A stretch of DNA of 32,000 nt from Candidatus Scalindua sp. (GCA_031316235.1 JALDRA010000001.1:3000001-3032000); one strand, 5' to 3'. Shown: positions 10,956-30,421, counted from the stretch's first letter. Translations and numbers: made by a program. Notes: generated by a model from the sequence alone, not told the origin.

Positions 10956-12323
10956 ATGGCCACAATACTACCGTTTCGAGGATTAAGGTATAATCCTGAA
11001 AAGATAGAGGATGTTTCAAAAGTGACAACACCTCCTTATGATGTAATCTCTGAAAATGAGAGAGATAGATTTTATGAACTTCATCCAAACTGCATAATCA
11101 GGCTCATACTGGGGAAAGATCTTCCTGGAGACGATCAATCGGTCAACAAGTATACAAGGGCTGCTGGATTTTTCGAAGAGTGGAGAAAAGGAGAAGTCCT
11201 CACACAGGATTCAGATCCTGCCATATACGTTTATGCCCAGCAGTTTACGTTGGAAAATAAAAGATATACCAGAAGGGGATTTGTCTCTTTGGTAAAATTA
11301 GAGGATTTTAAGACAGGCCATATCTACCCGCATGAACATACGCTCTCAAAACCAAAGGAAGACAGGATAAAGCTCATGCAGGCATGCGATGCGAATTTCA
11401 GTCAGGTATTTACCTTTTATGAAGATAAGGAAAGAAAGATATCTGAAATTCTATGCAATACGACTGGCGGTGATGCCGAGATGTGTGCGTCAGCAGAGAT
11501 CGATTTTGTTGATGTGTATGGTGTGAGGAATTTACTCTGGTGTATCAGGGACACAGAAGTTATTAATGAGATAACTGCATTGATGGAGGATAAGCCTCTG
11601 TTTATAGCGGATGGTCACCATCGATACGAAACAGCCCTTTATTACAGGGATATCAACAGAGATAATGAAGAGATGCAAAAACAAATAAAGCAGAGTGGTA
11701 CCGATGGGGGAATTGGTTCCCCCCTTGATTATGTAATGATGATGAATGTTGCAATGGAAGACAAGGGGCTTCAGATTTTACCAACGCATAGACTGGTCAG
11801 GAATATAGGAAAGCTGCAGCCTGACAAGATAAAACAATCCTTACTGGAAGTTTTTGAGATTGAGAATATGGGAAAGGATTGTGAAATAGATATGTTCACA
11901 AAGAGGCTCAGGGAGGAGAGGGTGTCTCACTCTTTTATTCTGTATATTGGTGAAGAGGATAAGGGGTTTTACTTGTTGACGGTACGAGATAAGGTACGGC
12001 TTCATCAAATCCTGGAAGGAAAACACGCTCACTGGAGGTCTATTGACACGGGAATATTGCATGGCTTTATCTTCGAAAAAATTCTGGGTATTAAAACTGA
12101 AGATATTGCAAAAACTGATTGCCTGAAATATATCCAGAGTGAAAGTGAGTCAATAGCAGCGGTAAATGAGGGTGAATATCAATTAGCATTTTTTCTGAAT
12201 CCGACAAGAATTGAGCAGATACGGGACATTGCCATTAAGAGGGATAAGATGCCGCCAAAATCAACGTATTTTTATCCTAAACTGATTACGGGGATAGTTC
12301 TTAGGCATATGATAGAAATTTAA
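10956..12323 (+). CDS. DUF1015 family protein (function unknown)
   Basis: The ORF encodes 455 aa. The N-terminus is the typical DUF1015 opening (MATILPFRGLRYNPEKI...VTTPPYDVIS), followed by FIADGHHRYETAL. Confidence 0.85.
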   Translation: MATILPFRGLRYNPEKIEDVSKVTTPPYDVISENERDRFYELHPNCIIRLILGKDLPGDDQSVNKYTRAAGFFEEWRKGEVLTQDSDPAIYVYAQQFTLENKRYTRRGFVSLVKLEDFKTGHIYPHEHTLSKPKEDRIKLMQACDANFSQVFTFYEDKERKISEILCNTTGGDAEMCASAEIDFVDVYGVRNLLWCIRDTEVINEITALMEDKPLFIADGHHRYETALYYRDINRDNEEMQKQIKQSGTDGGIGSPLDYVMMMNVAMEDKGLQILPTHRLVRNIGKLQPDKIKQSLLEVFEIENMGKDCEIDMFTKRLREERVSHSFILYIGEEDKGFYLLTVRDKVRLHQILEGKHAHWRSIDTGILHGFIFEKILGIKTEDIAKTDCLKYIQSESESIAAVNEGEYQLAFFLNPTRIEQIRDIAIKRDKMPPKSTYFYPKLITGIVLRHMIEI

Positions 12324-12344: not shown

Positions 12345-12373
12345 TTGACTTTGCATTTAATATGAGCTAGGAT
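12345..12373 (+). promoter_or_regulatory. Putative sigma70-type promoter of the riboswitch-controlled operon
   Basis: TTGACT (12345-12350), a 17-nt spacer, then TAGGAT (12368-12373). It lies about 15 nt upstream of riboswitch helix P1. Confidence 0.45.
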
Positions 12374-12388
12374 ACTTCAAAATTAAGA

Positions 12389-12493
12389 CTTATCTAGAGT
12401 GGTGGAGGGATCGGCCCTGAGAAACCACAGCAACCGATTTCTGCGTAATGCGGGAATATCGGTGCTAATTCCTACCTGATAGGGAAAGATAAG
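12389..12493 (+). promoter_or_regulatory. SAM-I (S-box) riboswitch aptamer
   Basis: CTTATCTAGAGTGGTGGAGGGATCGGCCCTGAGAAACCACAGCAACCGATTT...ATCGGTGCTAATTCCTACCTGATAGGGAAAGATAAG carries all the conserved S-box blocks: GGUGGAGGGA, GGCCC, GAxAAACC, GCAACC, GGUGCUAAUUCC and the P1 closing strand AGAUAAG. Confidence 0.95.
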
Positions 12494-12500
12494 ATTAGGA

Positions 12501-12543
12501 AAAAAGCCTCTTCTTATCTTTATTGTAAGAAGAGGCTTTTTTT
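12501..12543 (+). terminator. Riboswitch expression-platform intrinsic terminator
   Basis: A 12-bp stem (AGCCTCTTCTTA, 12505-12516, pairing with TAAGAAGAGGCT, 12526-12537) is followed by a T7 run. The CTTATCT in the 5' arm can alternatively pair with the P1 3' strand AGATAAG. This is the classic antiterminator/terminator logic and implies an OFF switch when SAM is bound. Confidence 0.9.
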
Positions 12544-12557
12544 GTATTGGAGGTAAA

Positions 12558-13805
12558 ATGGGTTTTGTCAAAGGACTTAAATGCAGGGAATGTGGAAAAG
12601 ACTATCCGAAGGAACCAATTCATGTTTGCAGCTTCTGTTTTGGTCCCCTGGAGGTTGATTACGAGTACGATGAAATAGGGAAAGTGATAAGTCGGGAGCT
12701 GATTGAGGCTCGAAAACCAACTATGTGGAGGTACAAAGAGCTCTTACCTCTGGATAGTGAACCGACAGTTGGTGCACAAGTTGGCTTTACTCCATTAGTA
12801 AGAGCTGATAATTTAGCGAGAAAACTCGGGGTAGATGAGCTCTATGTGAAAAATGACTCTGTTAACTTTCCCACATTTTCTTTCAAGGACAGAGTAGTTT
12901 CCGCTGCCCTTTCAAAAGCCAAGGAGTTTGGTTTTAAGACTGTGGCTTGTGCAACGACGGGTAATCTGGGAAACTCTGTTGCTGCGCAGGCGGTTCAGGG
13001 AAATCTGGAGAGCTATATCATCATGCCTGCCAATCTGGAGCAGGGAAAGGTGCTCGGCACCTCTATTTACGGGACAAATGTTATCGGCATAAACGGTGGT
13101 AATTATGATGGTGTGAACAGGTTGTGCTCTGAAATTTCAGATAAGTATGGCTGGGCATTTGCAAATATCAATCTCCGCCCGTTTTACGCTGAAGGTTCAA
13201 AGACCTACGGCTATGAGATTGTGGAACAGCTTGGCTGGAAAGCTCCAAAGCACGTGGTAGTGCCTATGGCCGGTGGTTCACTGATCATCAAAATAGGGAA
13301 AGCGATAAAGGAGTTTGAGAAACTAGGTTTGATTAATGGTTCAGATACGAAACTTTATGGTGCACAGGCTTCAGGATCCTCACCGATTTCAACTGCAGTG
13401 AAAAATGGAAGTGAATTTATTAAGCCGGTTAAACCCGATACAATAGCGCACTCTATTGCCATTGGGAATCCTGCGGATGGTTATTATTCCATAAAGGCAA
13501 TTCATAATAGCGGTGGCTGGGCTGAAGATGTTACTGATGATGAGTTAATCGAGGGGATAAAGCTCCTTGCCTCAACAGAAGGGATATTTACCGAGACTGC
13601 GGGTGGTGTAACCGTGGCCGTTACAAAAAAACTTCTGGAACAGGAAAGGATACCAAGGAACGAGTCAATCGTAATTTGTATTACGGGGAACGGCCTTAAA
13701 ACGCAGGAGGCGGTTTTGGGCAGGGTAAAACAACCCAGTATTATCAAACCTACTTTAGAAGATTTTGTCGCATTTATGGAGAAGAAAGAGTGTCTGGCCG
13801 TGTGA
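12558..13805 (+). CDS. Threonine synthase homologue (PLP fold type II) with an N-terminal zinc ribbon; candidate O-phosphohomoserine-dependent homocysteine synthase
   Basis: The ORF encodes 415 aa. The N-terminus is a Cys4 ribbon (CRECGKDY...CSFCFGPLEV). The PLP-lysine motif is TFSFKDR, and the glycine loop is GNLGNS...MAGGS. A GGAGG Shine-Dalgarno sequence is present. The gene lies directly downstream of the SAM riboswitch. Confidence 0.85.
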   Translation: MGFVKGLKCRECGKDYPKEPIHVCSFCFGPLEVDYEYDEIGKVISRELIEARKPTMWRYKELLPLDSEPTVGAQVGFTPLVRADNLARKLGVDELYVKNDSVNFPTFSFKDRVVSAALSKAKEFGFKTVACATTGNLGNSVAAQAVQGNLESYIIMPANLEQGKVLGTSIYGTNVIGINGGNYDGVNRLCSEISDKYGWAFANINLRPFYAEGSKTYGYEIVEQLGWKAPKHVVVPMAGGSLIIKIGKAIKEFEKLGLINGSDTKLYGAQASGSSPISTAVKNGSEFIKPVKPDTIAHSIAIGNPADGYYSIKAIHNSGGWAEDVTDDELIEGIKLLASTEGIFTETAGGVTVAVTKKLLEQERIPRNESIVICITGNGLKTQEAVLGRVKQPSIIKPTLEDFVAFMEKKECLAV

Positions 13806-14042
13806 GGTTTCGTTGGTAATGTATCTCTTGTCTGGGCAAGAGGGTAAACAGCGAATGTACTCCAGGGTAGTAGCAACTGAAATAATAAGAGTTCAAGACC
13901 CGATAATCCGTCTGCGTCGTGCAGGCGGAATCCTTGGGGATATATAGACTATGAACAATCTTTGCTCCTGACGGCAAAGCAAGTGTTTTTCATGTAACTA
14001 TTTCCTGTTTAGAATTTTAATTCAGAAGAAAGAGGTAATACC

Positions 14043-14330
14043 ATGGCCGTAAAAGTAAGAATTCCAACTCCTTTAAGGTCTTTAACCAATGGCTCCGATG
14101 AAGTTTCTGTAGAGGGAAATACCATTAAAGAGGTAGTGGATAATCTTGAATCAAGCTATCGAGGAATTAAAGAAAGAATTTGCGATGAGAACGGTCAAAT
14201 CAGAAAATTCATTAACTTCTATGTCAATGAAGAGGACATCAGGTTCCTGAACAACCAGGAAACACCGGTTAAGGACGGCGACCAGATATCGATAGTACCT
14301 GCCATAGCAGGAGGCACTGCTTTGTGCTGA
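14043..14330 (+). CDS. CysO/MoaD/ThiS-family ubiquitin-like sulfur carrier protein with a C-terminal extension after the GG motif
   Basis: The ORF encodes 95 aa. The layout closely parallels mycobacterial CysO as I remember it: V.IPT.LR, G...V...G.T, NLE..Y.GI.ERI, F.N.YVN.EDIRF, DGD.I.I.PA.AGG. It ends ...VPAIAGG-TALC. An AAGAGG Shine-Dalgarno sequence is present. Confidence 0.85.
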   Translation: MAVKVRIPTPLRSLTNGSDEVSVEGNTIKEVVDNLESSYRGIKERICDENGQIRKFINFYVNEEDIRFLNNQETPVKDGDQISIVPAIAGGTALC

Positions 14331-16232: not shown

Positions 16233-16550
16233 ATGGGAAAGGTAAGATGCCCGGGAAGCATAAAAACGACGGTACCGGAACCACTTGAGCGTAAGTGCCC
16301 TAAATGTGGCAGCTTAGTTGAGATCTGGAGTGATGAGGAAAAGGCAGACTGCAGGTGCGGTGCAACAGTCTTTAAGGATGTAAAAATGACCTGTGTCGTG
16401 TGGTGTAATGCTGCGGAAGAGTGTGTTGGCGACATAGTAGACGTCAAAAAAATTAAGGAAGAAGCAAAAAAGAAGGCGGCTTCTGAAGGAAATCCAGACT
16501 TCGTAAAACAGGTAACAGAGAAAATTATGAAGGAGAAAAAATCTGATTAA
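16233..16550 (+). CDS. Small cysteine-rich zinc-ribbon protein with a Lys/Glu-rich tail (hypothetical)
   Basis: The ORF encodes 105 aa with 8 Cys, including CPKCG...CRCG and C...WC.....EC. The C-terminal tail is KKIKEEAKKKAASEG...KIMKEKKSD. The composition is coding-like. I recognised no family. Confidence 0.6.
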   Translation: MGKVRCPGSIKTTVPEPLERKCPKCGSLVEIWSDEEKADCRCGATVFKDVKMTCVVWCNAAEECVGDIVDVKKIKEEAKKKAASEGNPDFVKQVTEKIMKEKKSD

Positions 16551-18282: not shown

Positions 18283-19233
18283 ATGGTTATCAAAAGCAAA
18301 CTGTTATTCTGGTTGTTGCTTCCTAATATAATAATAACAATTTCTGTGTCGGCAGCTTGGTTTTTTACTAACCAGAAAACGATAAGGCAAAACATCAATA
18401 ACCAGATTGCAATATCTGATGTTCAGTTACGCGAAGAAGCGCCTGCATCCCTGGAGGGAGAAAAGAGTTCTGCTGATAATTTTCAATCTGAAGCAAATAT
18501 TTCTGGATTCTTTGCTTCACCTGTTTACCTGCGAAACTTCTTGATATTGATGGGAATTATAGGGGGTACTTCTGCTGTAGTGATGATCAATATTTCTCAA
18601 AGGATTAGCAACTCTCTGAAAATAATTACAGAAGGGACAAAAAAAATAGCAAGTGGAGACTTTGGGTATCCAATTTCAACAGATACATTTGAGAGTGAAG
18701 TCAGGGTGCTTGGTGAATCGTTTAATTTGATGATGAACAAGCTGAGAGAGGCAGAAGATAAAAACAGAGAGCTTTTTTTGCAGGTGAAGAGAGGGAGAGA
18801 CGAGTGGCAGGAGACCTTTGATTCAATAAAGGATGTTATAACAATTATTGACAAGGATTTCAGGATAATCAGGGCAAATAAGGCATTTTTTAAAGAGTAT
18901 AATATTGATAAAACACGGTTAAAAGAAAAAAAATGTTTTGAAGTTTTTTATGGAGTTGATGCACCGTCGGAGAATTGTCCCCTCATGCAATGTTTTGAAA
19001 ACCTGAAAACTGTGTACGAAGAGATGGTCGATACAGAGATGGATGAGATATTTCTTGTTACGGTCTTTCCTCTTTTTGATGAAGAAGGGGAAATTTATGG
19101 TGCTGTGCATCAAAAAAAGGATATAACTTTTCAAAAAAAACTGCTTAAAGAACTTATGAAGAAGGCAAATAAATTAGATGAGGCAAATAGGGAACTGGAA
19201 AGGTTGACCCGTATTGTTTCTGAGCTGAGATAG
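18283..19233 (+). CDS. Membrane HAMP-PAS sensor protein ending exactly where a histidine-kinase H-box should start (probable truncated kinase)
   Basis: The ORF encodes 316 aa with two TM segments and a HAMP domain (ITEGTKKIASGDFGYPIS...VLGESFNLMMNKL). The PAS domain is WQETFDSIKDVITIIDKDFRIIRANKAF...CFEVFYG...CPLMQC. A coiled coil ends the protein (...LERLTRIVSELR-stop). There is no DHp or HATPase domain. Confidence 0.8.
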   Translation: MVIKSKLLFWLLLPNIIITISVSAAWFFTNQKTIRQNINNQIAISDVQLREEAPASLEGEKSSADNFQSEANISGFFASPVYLRNFLILMGIIGGTSAVVMINISQRISNSLKIITEGTKKIASGDFGYPISTDTFESEVRVLGESFNLMMNKLREAEDKNRELFLQVKRGRDEWQETFDSIKDVITIIDKDFRIIRANKAFFKEYNIDKTRLKEKKCFEVFYGVDAPSENCPLMQCFENLKTVYEEMVDTEMDEIFLVTVFPLFDEEGEIYGAVHQKKDITFQKKLLKELMKKANKLDEANRELERLTRIVSELR

Positions 19234-19429
19234 TCATCTGGTTTATTCTTCATAAAGTTTTAAAGTAAAAAATCTTCGGTCTCTCCTCAGAAAAAAAAGG
19301 GCAGCATCAAGAGAAGATGCTTAGTCTGACCTGTTCCTGAATAAAACACCTTCCTGCCTCCCTAACTCCTAGAAGATACAGCTCTGTATCATTCCAGAAT
19401 CAGTATGGATAGTATAGAAGGATAAGAAA

Positions 19430-19976
19430 ATGATAAAAGTCCTGCCGGCACAAATACCTGACATAGCGTTAAGGGCAATGCTGCGTTCCAGCGATAGGAT
19501 GATAGTTTTTATCTTTTACGCAGTTATTCTATCCAATGTAATCTCCGCATTTTCACAAGAGCTTTCAGTATCACCACAAGATAAGCCAGGATCAGCGGTT
19601 GATGAAGAGATCAGGTGGTTGCAGGCGGAAGCATTTGATTTGGATGTTATCCTGGCTTCCAGAAAGTCAGAAAAGCTTTTTAAAACGGCAGCTGCTATTT
19701 ACGTAATTACCCAGGAAGATATACGTAACTCATCAGCCACAAATATTCCTGAGTTACTGAGGATGGTACCTGGAATTAATGTTGCACGAATAGATGCTAA
19801 TAAATGGGGAGTAACTTCACGTGGGTTTAACAACAGGTTTGCAAACAAGCTTCTTGTACAAATAGACGGGCGGATTGTTTATACACTCCTTGAATTTAGT
19901 GGAACAAATGCCGACCGTACACAGTCAACAGAGGTTTGAACGGAGTCTGTACGCTAAGATAACATGGCAATTCTAA
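19430..19976 (+). pseudogene. TonB-dependent receptor remnant: plug domain joined out of frame to the last ~15 codons of the barrel
   Basis: The track ORF 19430..19939 encodes a signal peptide plus a plug (AAIYVITQEDIRNSSATNIPELLRMVPGINVARIDANKWGVTSRGFNNRFANKLLVQIDGRIVYT) and then turns to nonsense. The +1 frame reads ...QQRFERSLYAKITWQF-stop (stop at 19974-19976). That is the canonical outer-membrane-protein C-terminal motif ending in an aromatic residue. About 500 barrel residues are missing. Confidence 0.75.
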
Positions 19977-27166: not shown

Positions 27167-27532
27167 ATGTATGAATTAGTGGTAAAAGACGTTTTTGCCG
27201 GCGCTCACTCTCTGCGTAATTATGAAGGGGAGTGTGAAAAGCTGCATGGGCATAATTGGAAAGTAGAGATAACCCTTCGATGTGAAGAGCTTGACGATTT
27301 AGGTATGGTATTTGACTTCAAAAAAGTTAAAAAAATACTGGGGGAAGCACTTTCGCATTTTGATCATTCCCATTTAAATGAGCTTGAAGAGTTTTCACTT
27401 GTGAATCCAACAACGGAAAATGTTTCAAAGATACTGTTCAACAAAATAGGCGAAAAGTTACCCCCTAAAATATCCATTGCTAAGGTAAAAACATGGGAAT
27501 CTGATAACTGTGCTGCGGCATACTATATATAA
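27167..27532 (+). CDS. queD: 6-carboxy-5,6,7,8-tetrahydropterin synthase / 6-pyruvoyl-tetrahydropterin synthase family
   Basis: The ORF encodes 121 aa with FAGAHSL...CEKLHGHNWKVE (the Cys-x3-HGH zinc/catalytic motif), DFKKVKK, LDHSHLNEL and NPTTEN. Confidence 0.88.
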   Translation: MYELVVKDVFAGAHSLRNYEGECEKLHGHNWKVEITLRCEELDDLGMVFDFKKVKKILGEALSHFDHSHLNELEEFSLVNPTTENVSKILFNKIGEKLPPKISIAKVKTWESDNCAAAYYI

Positions 27533-27552
27533 ATCGCTCTTTTCAAATCGTT

Positions 27553-28857
27553 GTGAAAACCCATTTTAACACACCAATTCTTCAGATAGCCTTAGACTTT
27601 GTCAATTTGCGACGTGCAGTAAATGTAGCCCGGGAAGCGGTAAAGGCAGGCGTTGACTGGGTCGAGGTGGGCACCCCTTTGATTAAGAGTGAGGGGCTGA
27701 ATGCTGTCAGGGTGCTGCGGGAAGAATTTCCTTCGCTTACGATAGTAGCTGATATGAAGACAATGGATGCGGGGCGCATAGAAGTGGAATCCGCAGCCAA
27801 GGCCGGAGCCGATGTTTCAGTCGTGATGGGAGAAGCCTCTGAGGGGACGATAAGAGAGTGTATTTATGCGGGGCGAAATTATGGTATTAAGATATGGGTT
27901 GATTTTCTGACTCAAACCGATTTCGCTGAGCGTGCGATGAGGGCGGAGGAATTAGGAGCAGACTTTATCGGTGTGCATACGCCTATTGATGACCAGATGA
28001 GGGGTATGCATCCGTTTGAGAGCTTAAAACAGATTTGCTCAAAGGTTACTATCCCGGTATCAGTTGCAGGAGGTATTAACTCTGAGAGTGCCGTGGATGC
28101 AGTAAATGCCGGGGCAAGCATTGTTGTTGTCGGCGGAGCTATCTGTAAGGCGGTAAGTATAAGCGGTGCAGTTGCTGACCTGAAAAAGGCTCTCCGTGAT
28201 AAGAAAAAGATTTCGGTAACTCTTTATAAAAGAGTTGCAGGTGCGGATGTATACGAGGCATTGAAAAAAGTTTCAACTGCTAACATTTCGGATGGAGGGC
28301 ATCGGTTAAAGGGTATCAGCAATCTGCAGTGTCTCAGCTTGGAAGCGAAGATGGTTGGGCAGGCTTTTACCGTCCGTACTTACCCCGGAGACTGGGCAAA
28401 ACCCGTAGAGGCTATCGATAAAGCTGAAAAGGGGAGTGTGATTGTTGTTGATTCCGGGGGCTCTGGGCCTGCTGTTTGGGGGGAGCTGGCTACGCAGAGT
28501 GCTCTCCAGAGAGGGATCGCTGGTGTGGTGGTAAATGGGGCTGTACGGGACAGCTGCGAAATTAGAAAATTAAAACTCCCTACTTTTGCAAAATCAGTAA
28601 TGCCACATGCCGGAGAGCCTAAAGGGTTCGGGGAGATGGGGGTACCGTTAACAATTTCCGGAATAACGATTAAAAGTGGGGACTGGATTGTTGGTGACGA
28701 AGATGGACTGATGGTTATTCCACAACAAAAAGCAAAAGAGATGGCGAATTTAGCAATGGATTGCTGTGAAAGAGAAAACAGGCTGCGTGAAGAGATACTG
28801 GCGAATAAAACTTCTCTTGGGGAGGTAATGGAATTATTGAGATGGGAAAAAAGATAA
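27553..28857 (+). CDS. Fusion protein: 3-hexulose-6-phosphate synthase-like (OMPdecase/HUMPS fold) N-domain plus RraA-like (class II aldolase/decarboxylase fold) C-domain
   Basis: The N-terminal half reads LQIALDF...VDWVEVGTPLIKSEG...IVADMKTMDAG...GADFIGVHT...VAGGI. The C-terminal half reads GDWAKPVEAID...GSVIVVDSGG...AVWGELATQSALQRGIAGVVVNGAVRD...LPTFAK. The start codon is GTG. Confidence 0.85.
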   Translation: MKTHFNTPILQIALDFVNLRRAVNVAREAVKAGVDWVEVGTPLIKSEGLNAVRVLREEFPSLTIVADMKTMDAGRIEVESAAKAGADVSVVMGEASEGTIRECIYAGRNYGIKIWVDFLTQTDFAERAMRAEELGADFIGVHTPIDDQMRGMHPFESLKQICSKVTIPVSVAGGINSESAVDAVNAGASIVVVGGAICKAVSISGAVADLKKALRDKKKISVTLYKRVAGADVYEALKKVSTANISDGGHRLKGISNLQCLSLEAKMVGQAFTVRTYPGDWAKPVEAIDKAEKGSVIVVDSGGSGPAVWGELATQSALQRGIAGVVVNGAVRDSCEIRKLKLPTFAKSVMPHAGEPKGFGEMGVPLTISGITIKSGDWIVGDEDGLMVIPQQKAKEMANLAMDCCERENRLREEILANKTSLGEVMELLRWEKR

Positions 28858-28878: not shown

Positions 28879-29379
28879 ATGAAATGTGACTCATGTGGCA
28901 AAAAAATCGCTACCGTTCATCTTACTGAAATAGTTGGAACCGAAAAAAAAGAAAAGCATCTATGTGAGGAGTGTGCTCACAATGTAACAAACCATTTTCC
29001 TAAGGCTCCCTCTCCTTCAGATATACTGACGAGTATCATTAATCAGGTTTCGCCAGAGATTGAAGAAATGTCTAAGACTACCTGTCCGGTATGCGATCTC
29101 TCTTACCTGGAGTTTAGATCTCAGGGGCGTCTCGGGTGTCCCATGGATTATGATGCGTTTCAAAAAGGCCTTCTGCCTCTTATAGAGAGAATGCATGGAA
29201 GTTCCCAGCACGTGGGAAAAGTACCTGCAAATGCAAGTGAAGAAGTTATTAAGAAGAACCAGCTGATACAATTGCGTAAGGAATTAAACAGGGCCGTCCA
29301 AAAAGAAGATTACGAAATGGCCGCACAGATTAGGGATAAAATTTATGGACTTTCAGGGAACGTAGATAATGGAGATTAA
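28879..29379 (+). CDS. mcsA: McsA-like zinc-finger / UVR-domain protein (activator of protein arginine kinase)
   Basis: Zinc-finger cysteines are present (CDSCGKK...HLCEECA, then CPVCD...GRLGCP). A C-terminal UVR motif follows (LRKELNRAVQKEDYEMAAQIRDKI). The gene overlaps mcsB by 11 nt. Confidence 0.85.
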   Translation: MKCDSCGKKIATVHLTEIVGTEKKEKHLCEECAHNVTNHFPKAPSPSDILTSIINQVSPEIEEMSKTTCPVCDLSYLEFRSQGRLGCPMDYDAFQKGLLPLIERMHGSSQHVGKVPANASEEVIKKNQLIQLRKELNRAVQKEDYEMAAQIRDKIYGLSGNVDNGD

Positions 29380-30421
29380 AGATCTTTCTGACAATACTGG
29401 CGAATGGTTGAGGGGCACTGGAAAAGAATCGGATATCGTAATTAGCAGCAGGATACGATTGGCGAGAAATGTTACGGGATTTCCATTCCTTTTAAGAGCT
29501 AATTTAAGGCAGAGAAAGGAGGTAGAGTCTTTACTGAAAGAGACTATCATTAAATCTGAGATAACCAAGGAACTGTCATACGTAAACCTGAACACGGTAA
29601 CAACGATTGATAAATTGTTTTTGGTAGAACGGCATCTGATTAGCAAAGAACATGCTGATGGTGATGGAGAAAGAGGGGTTGCATTCGGAAAAACAGAAAC
29701 CATCAGTTTGATGATAAATGAAGAAGATCATTTGCGTATCCAGGTTATCCGTGCAGGCCTTGAGTTAAAAAATACATGGGAAGTGATAGATGAAATTGAT
29801 AACTGCTTGAGCGAAAAATTAAGCTTTGCTTTTTCGTCGCGGTTTGGATACTTAACGGCCTGTCCGACAAATGTCGGCACGGGAATGCGCGCTTCGGTTA
29901 TGTTGCATCTTCCTGCGTTAGGTATGACAAAACATATAGACAAAGTCTTTAATGCTGTTGGGAAGCTTGGCCTGGTAGTCAGAGGATTATATGGTGAGGG
30001 TACAAAGGTTTCAGGTGATTTGTACCAGATTTCGAATCAGTTCACTTTAGGAAAGACCGAGAACGAGATTTTAGCTATTATTGAAAGTGTGATTCCGCGT
30101 ATCACAAGCTATGAACGGATGGCAAGGAAAGCACTTGTTTTAGAAAGTAAGGAACAGTTAGAGGATAGAATTTGGAGATCATACGGTATGCTCAAGGCAG
30201 CACGAATGATTACATCGGAAGAGATACTGCAGTTACTTTCCCAAGTTCGTATGGGAGTGAACCTGGGTTTAATTGATGACATAGAAATGAAGACTCTAAA
30301 CGAACTTTTTATTCTAACACTTCCGGGGCATCTGCAGAAATTGCAGGGATGTGAGTTAGATTCTACTCAGAGAAATATTATTCGAGCCTCCTTTGTAAGG
30401 AAGAGGCTAGAAGACTTATAA
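29369..30421 (+). CDS. mcsB: Protein arginine kinase (ATP:guanido phosphotransferase family)
   Basis: The motifs present are SSRIRLARNVTGFPF, INEEDHLRIQ, GYLTACPTNVGTGMRASVMLHLP and GLYGEG...YQISNQ. Confidence 0.92.
   Translation: MEIKDLSDNTGEWLRGTGKESDIVISSRIRLARNVTGFPFLLRANLRQRKEVESLLKETIIKSEITKELSYVNLNTVTTIDKLFLVERHLISKEHADGDGERGVAFGKTETISLMINEEDHLRIQVIRAGLELKNTWEVIDEIDNCLSEKLSFAFSSRFGYLTACPTNVGTGMRASVMLHLPALGMTKHIDKVFNAVGKLGLVVRGLYGEGTKVSGDLYQISNQFTLGKTENEILAIIESVIPRITSYERMARKALVLESKEQLEDRIWRSYGMLKAARMITSEEILQLLSQVRMGVNLGLIDDIEMKTLNELFILTLPGHLQKLQGCELDSTQRNIIRASFVRKRLEDL

Follow-up and report, generated by a model that had tools for sequence, protein, structure and literature searches.

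The DNA analysed here is a stretch of 32,000 nucleotides (nt) from Candidatus Scalindua sp. (GCA_031316235.1 JALDRA010000001.1:3000001-3032000), called the window below, with positions counted from its first letter. It carries a SAM-I (S-box) riboswitch, a gene for a homologue of threonine synthase (ThrC) and a gene for a sulfur carrier protein similar to CysO. Comparison of this region with related loci suggests that it is very probably a two-gene unit of the MetM/MetO type that makes homocysteine and is repressed by S-adenosylmethionine (SAM). The MetM/MetO pathway comprises the carrier MetO, the hydrolase Mec, the ligase MoeZ and MetM, a homocysteine synthase that depends on the MetO thiocarboxylate (GapMind 2026, bioRxiv 10.1101/2024.10.14.618325). 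An earlier note on this DNA, made from the sequence alone, had named such a pathway from Streptomyces, and the pathway does exist (Hasebe et al. 2024, Appl Environ Microbiol 90:e01247-24, as cited by GapMind 2026 and PMC12172450). The same note had presented a riboswitch-linked version in this lineage as potential independent support for a pathway reported in Streptomyces, but neither the link to a riboswitch nor the occurrence elsewhere is new. According to PMC12172450, S. albulus metM has a SAM riboswitch before it and metO beside it, so the riboswitch-enzyme-carrier layout was already described for Streptomyces, and the occurrence of the pathway outside Streptomyces has also been stated already. 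Since the pathway is published, the unit described here extends known biology.

The riboswitch and the two genes that follow it

The unit has the following parts:

12345-12373, + strand: putative sigma-70-like promoter, TTGACT-17-TAGGAT (consensus scan)
12387-12495, + strand: SAM-I (S-box) riboswitch aptamer (Rfam RF00162)
12500-12543, + strand: expression platform with an intrinsic terminator (folding and reading of the sequence)
12558-13805, + strand: metM-like gene for a fold-type II pyridoxal 5'-phosphate (PLP) enzyme of 415 amino acids, a ThrC homologue (open reading frame and profile matches)
13806-14042, + strand: spacer of 238 nt between the metM-like and metO-like genes
14043-14330, + strand: metO-like gene for a ThiS/MoaD-family carrier of 95 amino acids, CysO type (open reading frame; Pfam ThiS, 7.7e-17)

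Across the 32-kb window, Rfam gave a single match, to RF00162, which covers 12387-12495 of the + strand and the whole model (positions 1-108 of 108); it scored 78.9 bits (gathering score 44.4), with an E value of 3.3e-17. The earlier note had placed an S-box aptamer and terminator at 12389-12543, and both were found within 2 nt of these limits. Folding of the leader (12385-12560) gave a four-way aptamer followed by a long hairpin (12506-12536), with a minimum free energy of -66 kcal/mol (z = -6.1) that was equalled by none of 200 shuffled sequences. The terminator stem is formed by 12506-12516 and 12526-12536, with an A-run 5' of the hairpin and a run of seven T residues at 12537-12543. Within the 5' arm of the hairpin lies UCUUAUCUU (12512-12520), an exact complement of the 3' strand of P1, AAGAUAAGA (12486-12494). 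Pairing of the two would form an antiterminator, and such mutually exclusive pairings are the classic S-box layout. The hairpin and the T-run are kept in Scalindua AMX11 and in Jettenia, where the orthologous aptamers score 74.7 and 85.3 bits, respectively, and conservation of aptamer and terminator extends to Loosdrechtia, Brocadia and a Brocadiia genome. The distance from the aptamer to the start codon is 62 nt, with the terminator in between. The promoter-like site lies 14 nt 5' of the aptamer, in a segment that is kept in Scalindua AMX11 and partly in Jettenia; the scan that found it yields no more sites in the DNA than in shuffled sequences. Transcription would thus be expected to start just 5' of the aptamer. 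When SAM is plentiful, P1 would be closed, the hairpin and U-run would form, and transcription would halt before the genes. When SAM is scarce, 12486-12494 would pair with 12512-12520 in the 5' arm of the terminator, no terminator would form, and the polymerase would read through.

A GGAGG of the ribosome-binding type (12549-12553) precedes the metM-like gene. Its product matched Pfam PALP (9e-70) and TIGR00260 thrC (276.9 bits against a cut-off of 167.1) and scored below the cut-off of NF006050 (280.7 against 303). With TIGR01136 cysKM it scored 52.8 against a cut-off of 344, which places it outside the CysK/CysM family, and it matched TIGR03844, the profile of the ThrC paralogue cysteate synthase, weakly (58 bits). 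An N-terminal Cys4 ribbon (C9, C12, C24 and C27, as CxxC...CxxC) and the PLP lysine K110 in TFSFK110DR are present, as expected from the earlier description of a ThrC homologue with a Cys4 zinc ribbon and the motif TFSFKDR. The Cys4 residues and the lysine are kept in 226-232 of 232 relatives, with K110 present in all 232; the ribbon also occurs outside the MetM-like clade. The nearest homologue, from Candidatus Scalindua sp. AMX11, is 95% identical, and the next ones (71-92%) come from Scalindua, Brocadia, Jettenia, Loosdrechtia and other Brocadiales. All homologues that have a name carry the annotation 'threonine synthase', the mislabelling that the earlier note had foreseen.

The best matches of the carrier in the PDB are two CysO proteins, 4n6e_B from Amycolatopsis (85 bits) and 3dwg_C from M. 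tuberculosis (82 bits; E value 2.5e-22; 47% identity), in agreement with the CysO-like protein of 95 amino acids proposed earlier. The carrier ends in ...AIAGG-TALC, and the GG at the C-terminus of CysO is aligned with its G90-G91. It scored 19.1 with the MoaD equivalog TIGR01682 (cut-off 66.15) and just over the cut-off with TIGR01687 moaD_arch (50.8 against 49.5). The earlier note had considered that the carrier gene might belong to a molybdopterin operon, and no moaE, moaA, moaB or other molybdenum-cofactor gene was found in the 32-kb window. Among the carriers examined, 39 of 66 end at GG. The Brocadiales carriers continue past GG by 2-11 residues (TALC, TAASGNDRYLI, NYRF, KLMLKEF, NS and TQL; loci L001, L007 and L131-L133, and 14317-14330 of the window), and these extensions differ in every Brocadiales genus. 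They would need to be removed before the C-terminus could be activated, which implies a JAMM/Mec-type peptidase.

The spacer contains a promoter-like site (13987-14015, consensus scan), hairpins and the ribosome-binding site of the metO-like gene, AGAGG, and in Scalindua a separate promoter may serve the carrier gene. In Scalindua AMX11 the spacer is 358 nt long and has little similarity to that of the window, and in other Brocadiales it is 34-70 nt long. The idea that the spacer is a mobile element or encodes a functional RNA was rejected as unsupported, since it has no Rfam match, is not conserved with AMX11 and folds with z = -1.9. No second copy of the spacer was found in the window or in the loci fetched.

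The MetM-like clade and its proposed reaction

The crystallised threonine synthases that match the window enzyme best, those of B. subtilis (6cgq), Aquifex (2zsj), Thermus (1uim) and M. tuberculosis (2d1f), share 32-37% identity with it. These four were aligned with 114 members of the clade, using Thermus numbering checked against the PLP lysine K61. The window enzyme has L137, N205, R207, Y210, S214, G239 and L242 where ThrC has T88, S155, N157, R160, Q164, N188 and N191, respectively. All of these ThrC residues are invariant across the four crystallised enzymes. In the clade, T88 is replaced by L (114/114), S155 by N (113/114), N157 by R (114/114), R160 by Y (114/114) and Q164 by S (114/114), while all members have S or G for N188 and L, Q or M for N191. 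The same signature was found in 118 of 118 closest homologues from a protein search, and in nearly all representatives of clusters at 50% identity, down to about 40% identity. In structural work on Thermus ThrC, T88, N154, S155, R160 and N188 reportedly hold the phosphate of the substrate or product, and the retained phosphate directs the addition of water. Given these roles, the substitutions of the clade fit a changed reaction specificity, with probable loss of the water-addition chemistry that uses the retained phosphate.

The enzyme thus shares with canonical ThrC the fold family, the PLP lysine motif SFKDR and probably the substrate. It differs in T88L, S155N, N157R, R160Y, Q164S, N188G and N191L, in the change of GM to VV after KDR, and in the added N-terminal Cys4 ribbon. 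The unit is predicted to be controlled by SAM and not by threonine, and the enzyme gene adjoins a carrier gene where ThrC genes have hom, thrB or ask. One relative that retains the canonical signature (P0226/P0437) is found in a cluster with genes for a GHMP kinase (thrB-like), homoserine dehydrogenase (hom) and aspartate kinase (ask). A separate set of ThrC-like paralogues of about 443 amino acids (L134 6001-7332, which is P0424, and also P0143) has the signature V88/T155/R157/Y160. The P0424-type gene overlaps the end of leuS, has no carrier gene and leaves no upstream room for a riboswitch. These paralogues do not appear to be canonical ThrC or MetM.

Species genomes were surveyed with a DNA pattern that encodes FKDRVV with GC-rich codons. 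This gave 120 loci, and since they were selected in this way, percentages from them are biased and are not population frequencies. All 120 encode a homologue that is 46-65% identical to the window enzyme. A covariance model made from four SAM-I aptamers was run on all 120 loci, and riboswitches were counted in the 110 loci whose upstream DNA measured 300 nt or more if they were on the same strand and ended at most 232 nt before the start codon. A SAM-I riboswitch was found directly upstream in 92 of these 110. The linked loci span Actinomycetota, Acidobacteriota, Chloroflexota, Elusimicrobiota, Planctomycetota and Verrucomicrobiota. By group, the riboswitch was present as follows:

Acidimicrobiia: 16/16
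Thermoleophilia: 18/18
Actinomycetes: 35/39
Verrucomicrobiota: 4/4
Planctomycetota: 2/2
Acidobacteriota: 3/5
Chloroflexota: 2/3
Elusimicrobiota: 1/1
Cyanobacteria: 0/5
Nitrospinota: 0/3
Dormibacterota: 0/2

Of the 88 loci that could be tested for a carrier, 52 have a CysO-like gene immediately after the enzyme gene. Outside the class Actinomycetes the count is 47 of 53, and within the class it is 5 of 35. Despite the bias of the sample, the linkage to riboswitch and carrier is far too consistent for chance. Taken together, the comparative evidence supports a tie of the clade to SAM and methionine metabolism rather than to threonine.

In the cultured actinomycete Nonomuraea gerenzanensis, the order is SAM-I riboswitch, enzyme and a carrier that ends exactly at GG, which corresponds to the order described for S. 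albulus (PMC12172450). The carrier gene does not adjoin the riboswitch-linked MetM-like gene in Micromonosporaceae, Geodermatophilaceae and related actinomycetes (L015, L028, L036, L047, L050, L009 and other loci of the class Actinomycetes), so their sulfur donor must either come from a gene elsewhere or be a different one. The actinomycete clade members examined are 46-54% identical to the window enzyme. The members from Nonomuraea and Micromonosporaceae that have the riboswitch served as proxies for S. albulus MetM. No Streptomyces locus was among the 120 survey loci, the one match of a tblastn search against plasmids was a Nonomuraea chromosome entered there as a plasmid, and a protein search with the Nonomuraea enzyme gave no Streptomyces protein among the matches listed (Streptosporangiaceae).

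These comparisons allow a route to be proposed. A JAMM/Mec-type peptidase would trim TALC from the carrier of 95 amino acids and expose Gly-Gly, and an E1 enzyme of the MoeZ/MoeB/ThiF type would then adenylate and thiocarboxylate the carrier. The ThrC-like enzyme, with its Schiff base at K110, would eliminate phosphate from O-phosphohomoserine. The carrier thiocarboxylate would attack C-gamma to give homocysteine, where ThrC instead adds water at C-beta, and homocysteine would be methylated to methionine. The earlier note had predicted that O-phosphohomoserine and the thiocarboxylated carrier are converted to homocysteine, and the shared architecture, the riboswitch linkage, the methionine-type neighbours and the replaced ThrC residues argue for that prediction.

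The unit resembles S. albulus MetM/MetO, as described in GapMind 2026 and PMC12172450, in having a PLP enzyme homologous to ThrC with a ThiS-family carrier gene after it and a SAM riboswitch before it, in the proposed conversion of O-phosphohomoserine and carrier thiocarboxylate to homocysteine, and in the annotation as threonine synthase. It differs from what is described there in its 238-nt spacer, in the TALC after GG and in the DUF1015 gene upstream, and its lineage belongs to the anaerobic ammonium-oxidizing (anammox) Planctomycetota (41.5% G+C) and not to the Actinomycetota. With the CysM/CysO/Mec/MoeZ system of M. tuberculosis it shares a carrier that is about 47% identical to CysO (3dwg_C), the donation of sulfur from a protein thiocarboxylate to a PLP enzyme whose substrate is an O-phospho amino acid, and the need for an E1 and a JAMM peptidase. 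In contrast to that system, the partner enzyme belongs to the ThrC family and not to CysK/CysM, the substrate is likely O-phosphohomoserine, and the reaction would be a gamma- and not a beta-replacement, with homocysteine as the product. A further protein-thiocarboxylate pathway for methionine, HcyS/MetY/HcyD/HcyF of Wolinella succinogenes, was reportedly described by Krishnamoorthy and Begley in 2011. This system likewise has a ThiS-like carrier with a C-terminal extension, JAMM trimming and delivery of sulfur for homocysteine, but it uses the fold-type I enzyme MetY with O-acetylhomoserine and has neither a ThrC-like enzyme nor O-phosphohomoserine.

Several points weigh against assigning the unit to homocysteine synthesis. 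The survey loci were chosen by the FKDRVV motif and GC-rich codons, with the bias noted above. Orthology to S. albulus MetM is based on the architecture and on the identities reported for a cyanobacterial homologue (PMC12172450). The 32-kb window contains no second ThrC, Mec-type peptidase or E1. Finally, a clade member from Microcystis, which lacks the riboswitch, is reported to make threonine from O-phosphohomoserine and to deaminate threonine in vitro (PMC12172450).

The last point leads to the alternative that survives best, although we consider it unlikely: a bifunctional enzyme, as proposed for Microcystis, which would be a threonine synthase, and perhaps a deaminase, that also makes homocysteine, so that homocysteine synthesis would not be its sole or main role. 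The Microcystis aeruginosa 'ThrC' is a member of this clade. It shares 51.6% identity with S. albulus MetM, its gene adjoins a metO-like gene, and threonine synthase kinetics with O-phosphohomoserine as well as deaminase activity have been reported for it (PMC12172450). The cyanobacterial survey loci share the active-site signature and the adjoining carrier gene, and the window enzyme itself matches TIGR00260 thrC above its cut-off. MetM/metO homologues of cyanobacteria have no SAM riboswitch (PMC12172450), as in the five cyanobacterial loci of our survey. Against a bifunctional enzyme, SAM and not threonine is expected to control expression in the window and in the 92 of 110 related loci. The residues that are invariant in ThrC are replaced clade-wide, and a second 'threonine synthase' is expressed in Kuenenia. 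The Microcystis study itself found no rise in methionine, and in some of its assays the formation of threonine from O-phosphohomoserine was weak (PMC12172450).

Still less probable is a different substrate or sulfur donor, either O-phosphoserine converted to cysteine on a ThrC scaffold, comparable to cysteate synthase, or free sulfide used without the carrier. The carrier is nearest to CysO, the cysteate synthase profile gives its weak match of 58 bits, and S-box regulons of some bacteria include cysteine-related genes. The adjoining carrier in only 5 of 35 Actinomycetes loci is also compatible with another donor, but the figure of 47 of 53 outside that class is not what such a donor would lead one to expect. 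The neighbours of the gene elsewhere belong to the methionine/SAM cycle (metH, metK, ahcY) and not to cysteine synthesis, and the characterised relative uses O-phosphohomoserine and the MetO thiocarboxylate (GapMind 2026). An ordinary ThrC beside a molybdopterin MoaD, with a riboswitch that is coincidental or regulates something else, is strongly disfavoured and hardly credible: it would agree with the automatic annotation of every named homologue as threonine synthase and with a TIGR01687 score barely over the cut-off (50.8 against 49.5), but the 62 nt from the riboswitch to the start codon include its terminator, the linkage recurs in six phyla, moaE, moaA and moaB are absent nearby and TIGR01682 gives 19.1 against 66.15, and the active-site signature is unlike that of ThrC, the relative with the canonical signature being the one found in a thr operon.

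Anammox loci and gene neighbourhood

The SAM-I riboswitch, the enzyme and the carrier are kept in all six Brocadiales loci examined:

Scalindua, this stretch: the window
Scalindua AMX11: L006-L008
Jettenia: L001 and L002
Loosdrechtia: L131
Brocadia: L132
Brocadiia metagenome-assembled genome (MAG): L133

Synteny with the window extends for more than 15 kb in three Scalindua contigs. In the window, the unit has DUF1015 and YjeF_N genes as neighbours and none of hom, thrB or ask. Near the unit, metK-ahcY is found in Jettenia and Loosdrechtia, and speD-speE in the Brocadiia MAG L133. Homologues that lack the riboswitch lie near metH and two metE-like genes in bacterium HR37, and near metH in a Thermodesulfobacteriota MAG. 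Neither hom nor thrB is among the neighbours in these other lineages.

The gene directly 5' of the riboswitch unit, which is not under the riboswitch, is the following:

10956-12323, + strand: DUF1015 gene (SerBK-like, kinase-like; Pfam PF06245, 1.6e-88)

A DUF1015 gene is found in the same position in Scalindua AMX11 (L007 8322-9689), Jettenia (L001 8125-9435) and Loosdrechtia (L131 6341-7651), and in the latter two it comes after metK-ahcY. At this position it is absent from Brocadia, from the Brocadiia MAG and from all 120 non-anammox loci. The DUF1015 family corresponds to SerBK, which is serine-kinase-like and able to replace SerB (GapMind 2026, bioRxiv 10.1101/2024.10.14.618325). The gene is possibly an accessory or a kinase tied to methionine/SAM metabolism in anammox bacteria. 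A stronger proposal, which we regard as doubtful, is that the MetM/MetO unit is the sole homocysteine route of Brocadiales and that DUF1015 is a dedicated part of it, for example a homoserine kinase that supplies O-phosphohomoserine. If true, this would define a lineage-specific module of three genes and a new function for a subfamily of DUF1015.

Other genes of the window were noted as separate observations. A cysteine-rich protein of 105 amino acids with several CxxC pairs (16233-16550, + strand) has no confident family match, and an open reading frame of the same size is present at the corresponding position of AMX11 (L007 13357-13674). The synteny with AMX11 ends after a response regulator, at 18283-19939 (+ strand), where the window has a HAMP/PAS protein and a Plug-only open reading frame of 169 amino acids and AMX11 instead has a full TonB-dependent receptor of 680 amino acids; this difference may reflect a truncation or rearrangement. 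At 27167-28857 (+ strand), a gene of the 6-pyruvoyl-tetrahydropterin synthase family is followed by a gene for a fusion protein of 434 amino acids, in which a domain like OMP decarboxylase/hexulose-phosphate synthase is joined to an RraA-like aldolase domain. At 28879-30421 (+ strand), a gene for a UVR-motif protein is followed by one for an ATP:guanido phosphotransferase, and the pair resembles McsA/McsB (protein arginine kinase). McsA/McsB is best known from Gram-positive bacteria.

Methionine synthesis in anammox bacteria

A dependence of Brocadia and Kuenenia on partners for methionine has been deduced from missing canonical genes (PMC11460484, PMC6714388). Isotope tracing showed that Kuenenia labels methionine although no pathway is annotated, and a 'potentially novel pathway' was called for (PMC8027424). 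The Kuenenia proteome from that study contains two 'threonine synthase' proteins, Q1PUL7 (46.1 kDa) and Q1Q1K9 (49.1 kDa), and also a MoeB/ThiF-like E1, a MoaD-like protein of 10.5 kDa and methionine synthase (PMC8027424). A second ThrC is documented for Kuenenia only, which is a relative of Scalindua. We compared molecular masses and cluster names to decide which of the two is the MetM-like protein, and only the proximity of accessions favours Q1PUL7: Q1PUL9, an uncharacterised protein of 50.3 kDa, which is the size of a DUF1015 protein, is two accession numbers away. This nearness circumstantially suggests that Q1PUL7 is the MetM-like protein of Kuenenia. The 443-amino-acid group of P0143 and P0424 was considered for the 49.1-kDa protein and rejected, because its masses are about 47 kDa and its locus has 67% G+C, a leuS neighbour and no carrier gene.

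No link of anammox bacteria to MetM/MetO was found in the literature searched. The MetM/MetO unit probably fills the methionine gap of these bacteria: all Brocadiales loci examined carry a SAM-regulated unit of this type, which would be a concrete solution for the missing pathway, and for Kuenenia a candidate gene product has been detected in the proteome. For the family as a whole, six phyla or more show the linkage to the riboswitch, and L, R and Y at the positions of ThrC T88, N157 and R160 can be used in annotation to separate MetM-type proteins from true ThrC. If the unit does supply homocysteine in anammox bacteria, metabolic models of these organisms and the way in which their cross-feeding is read would change, which is relevant to wastewater treatment and to the marine nitrogen cycle.

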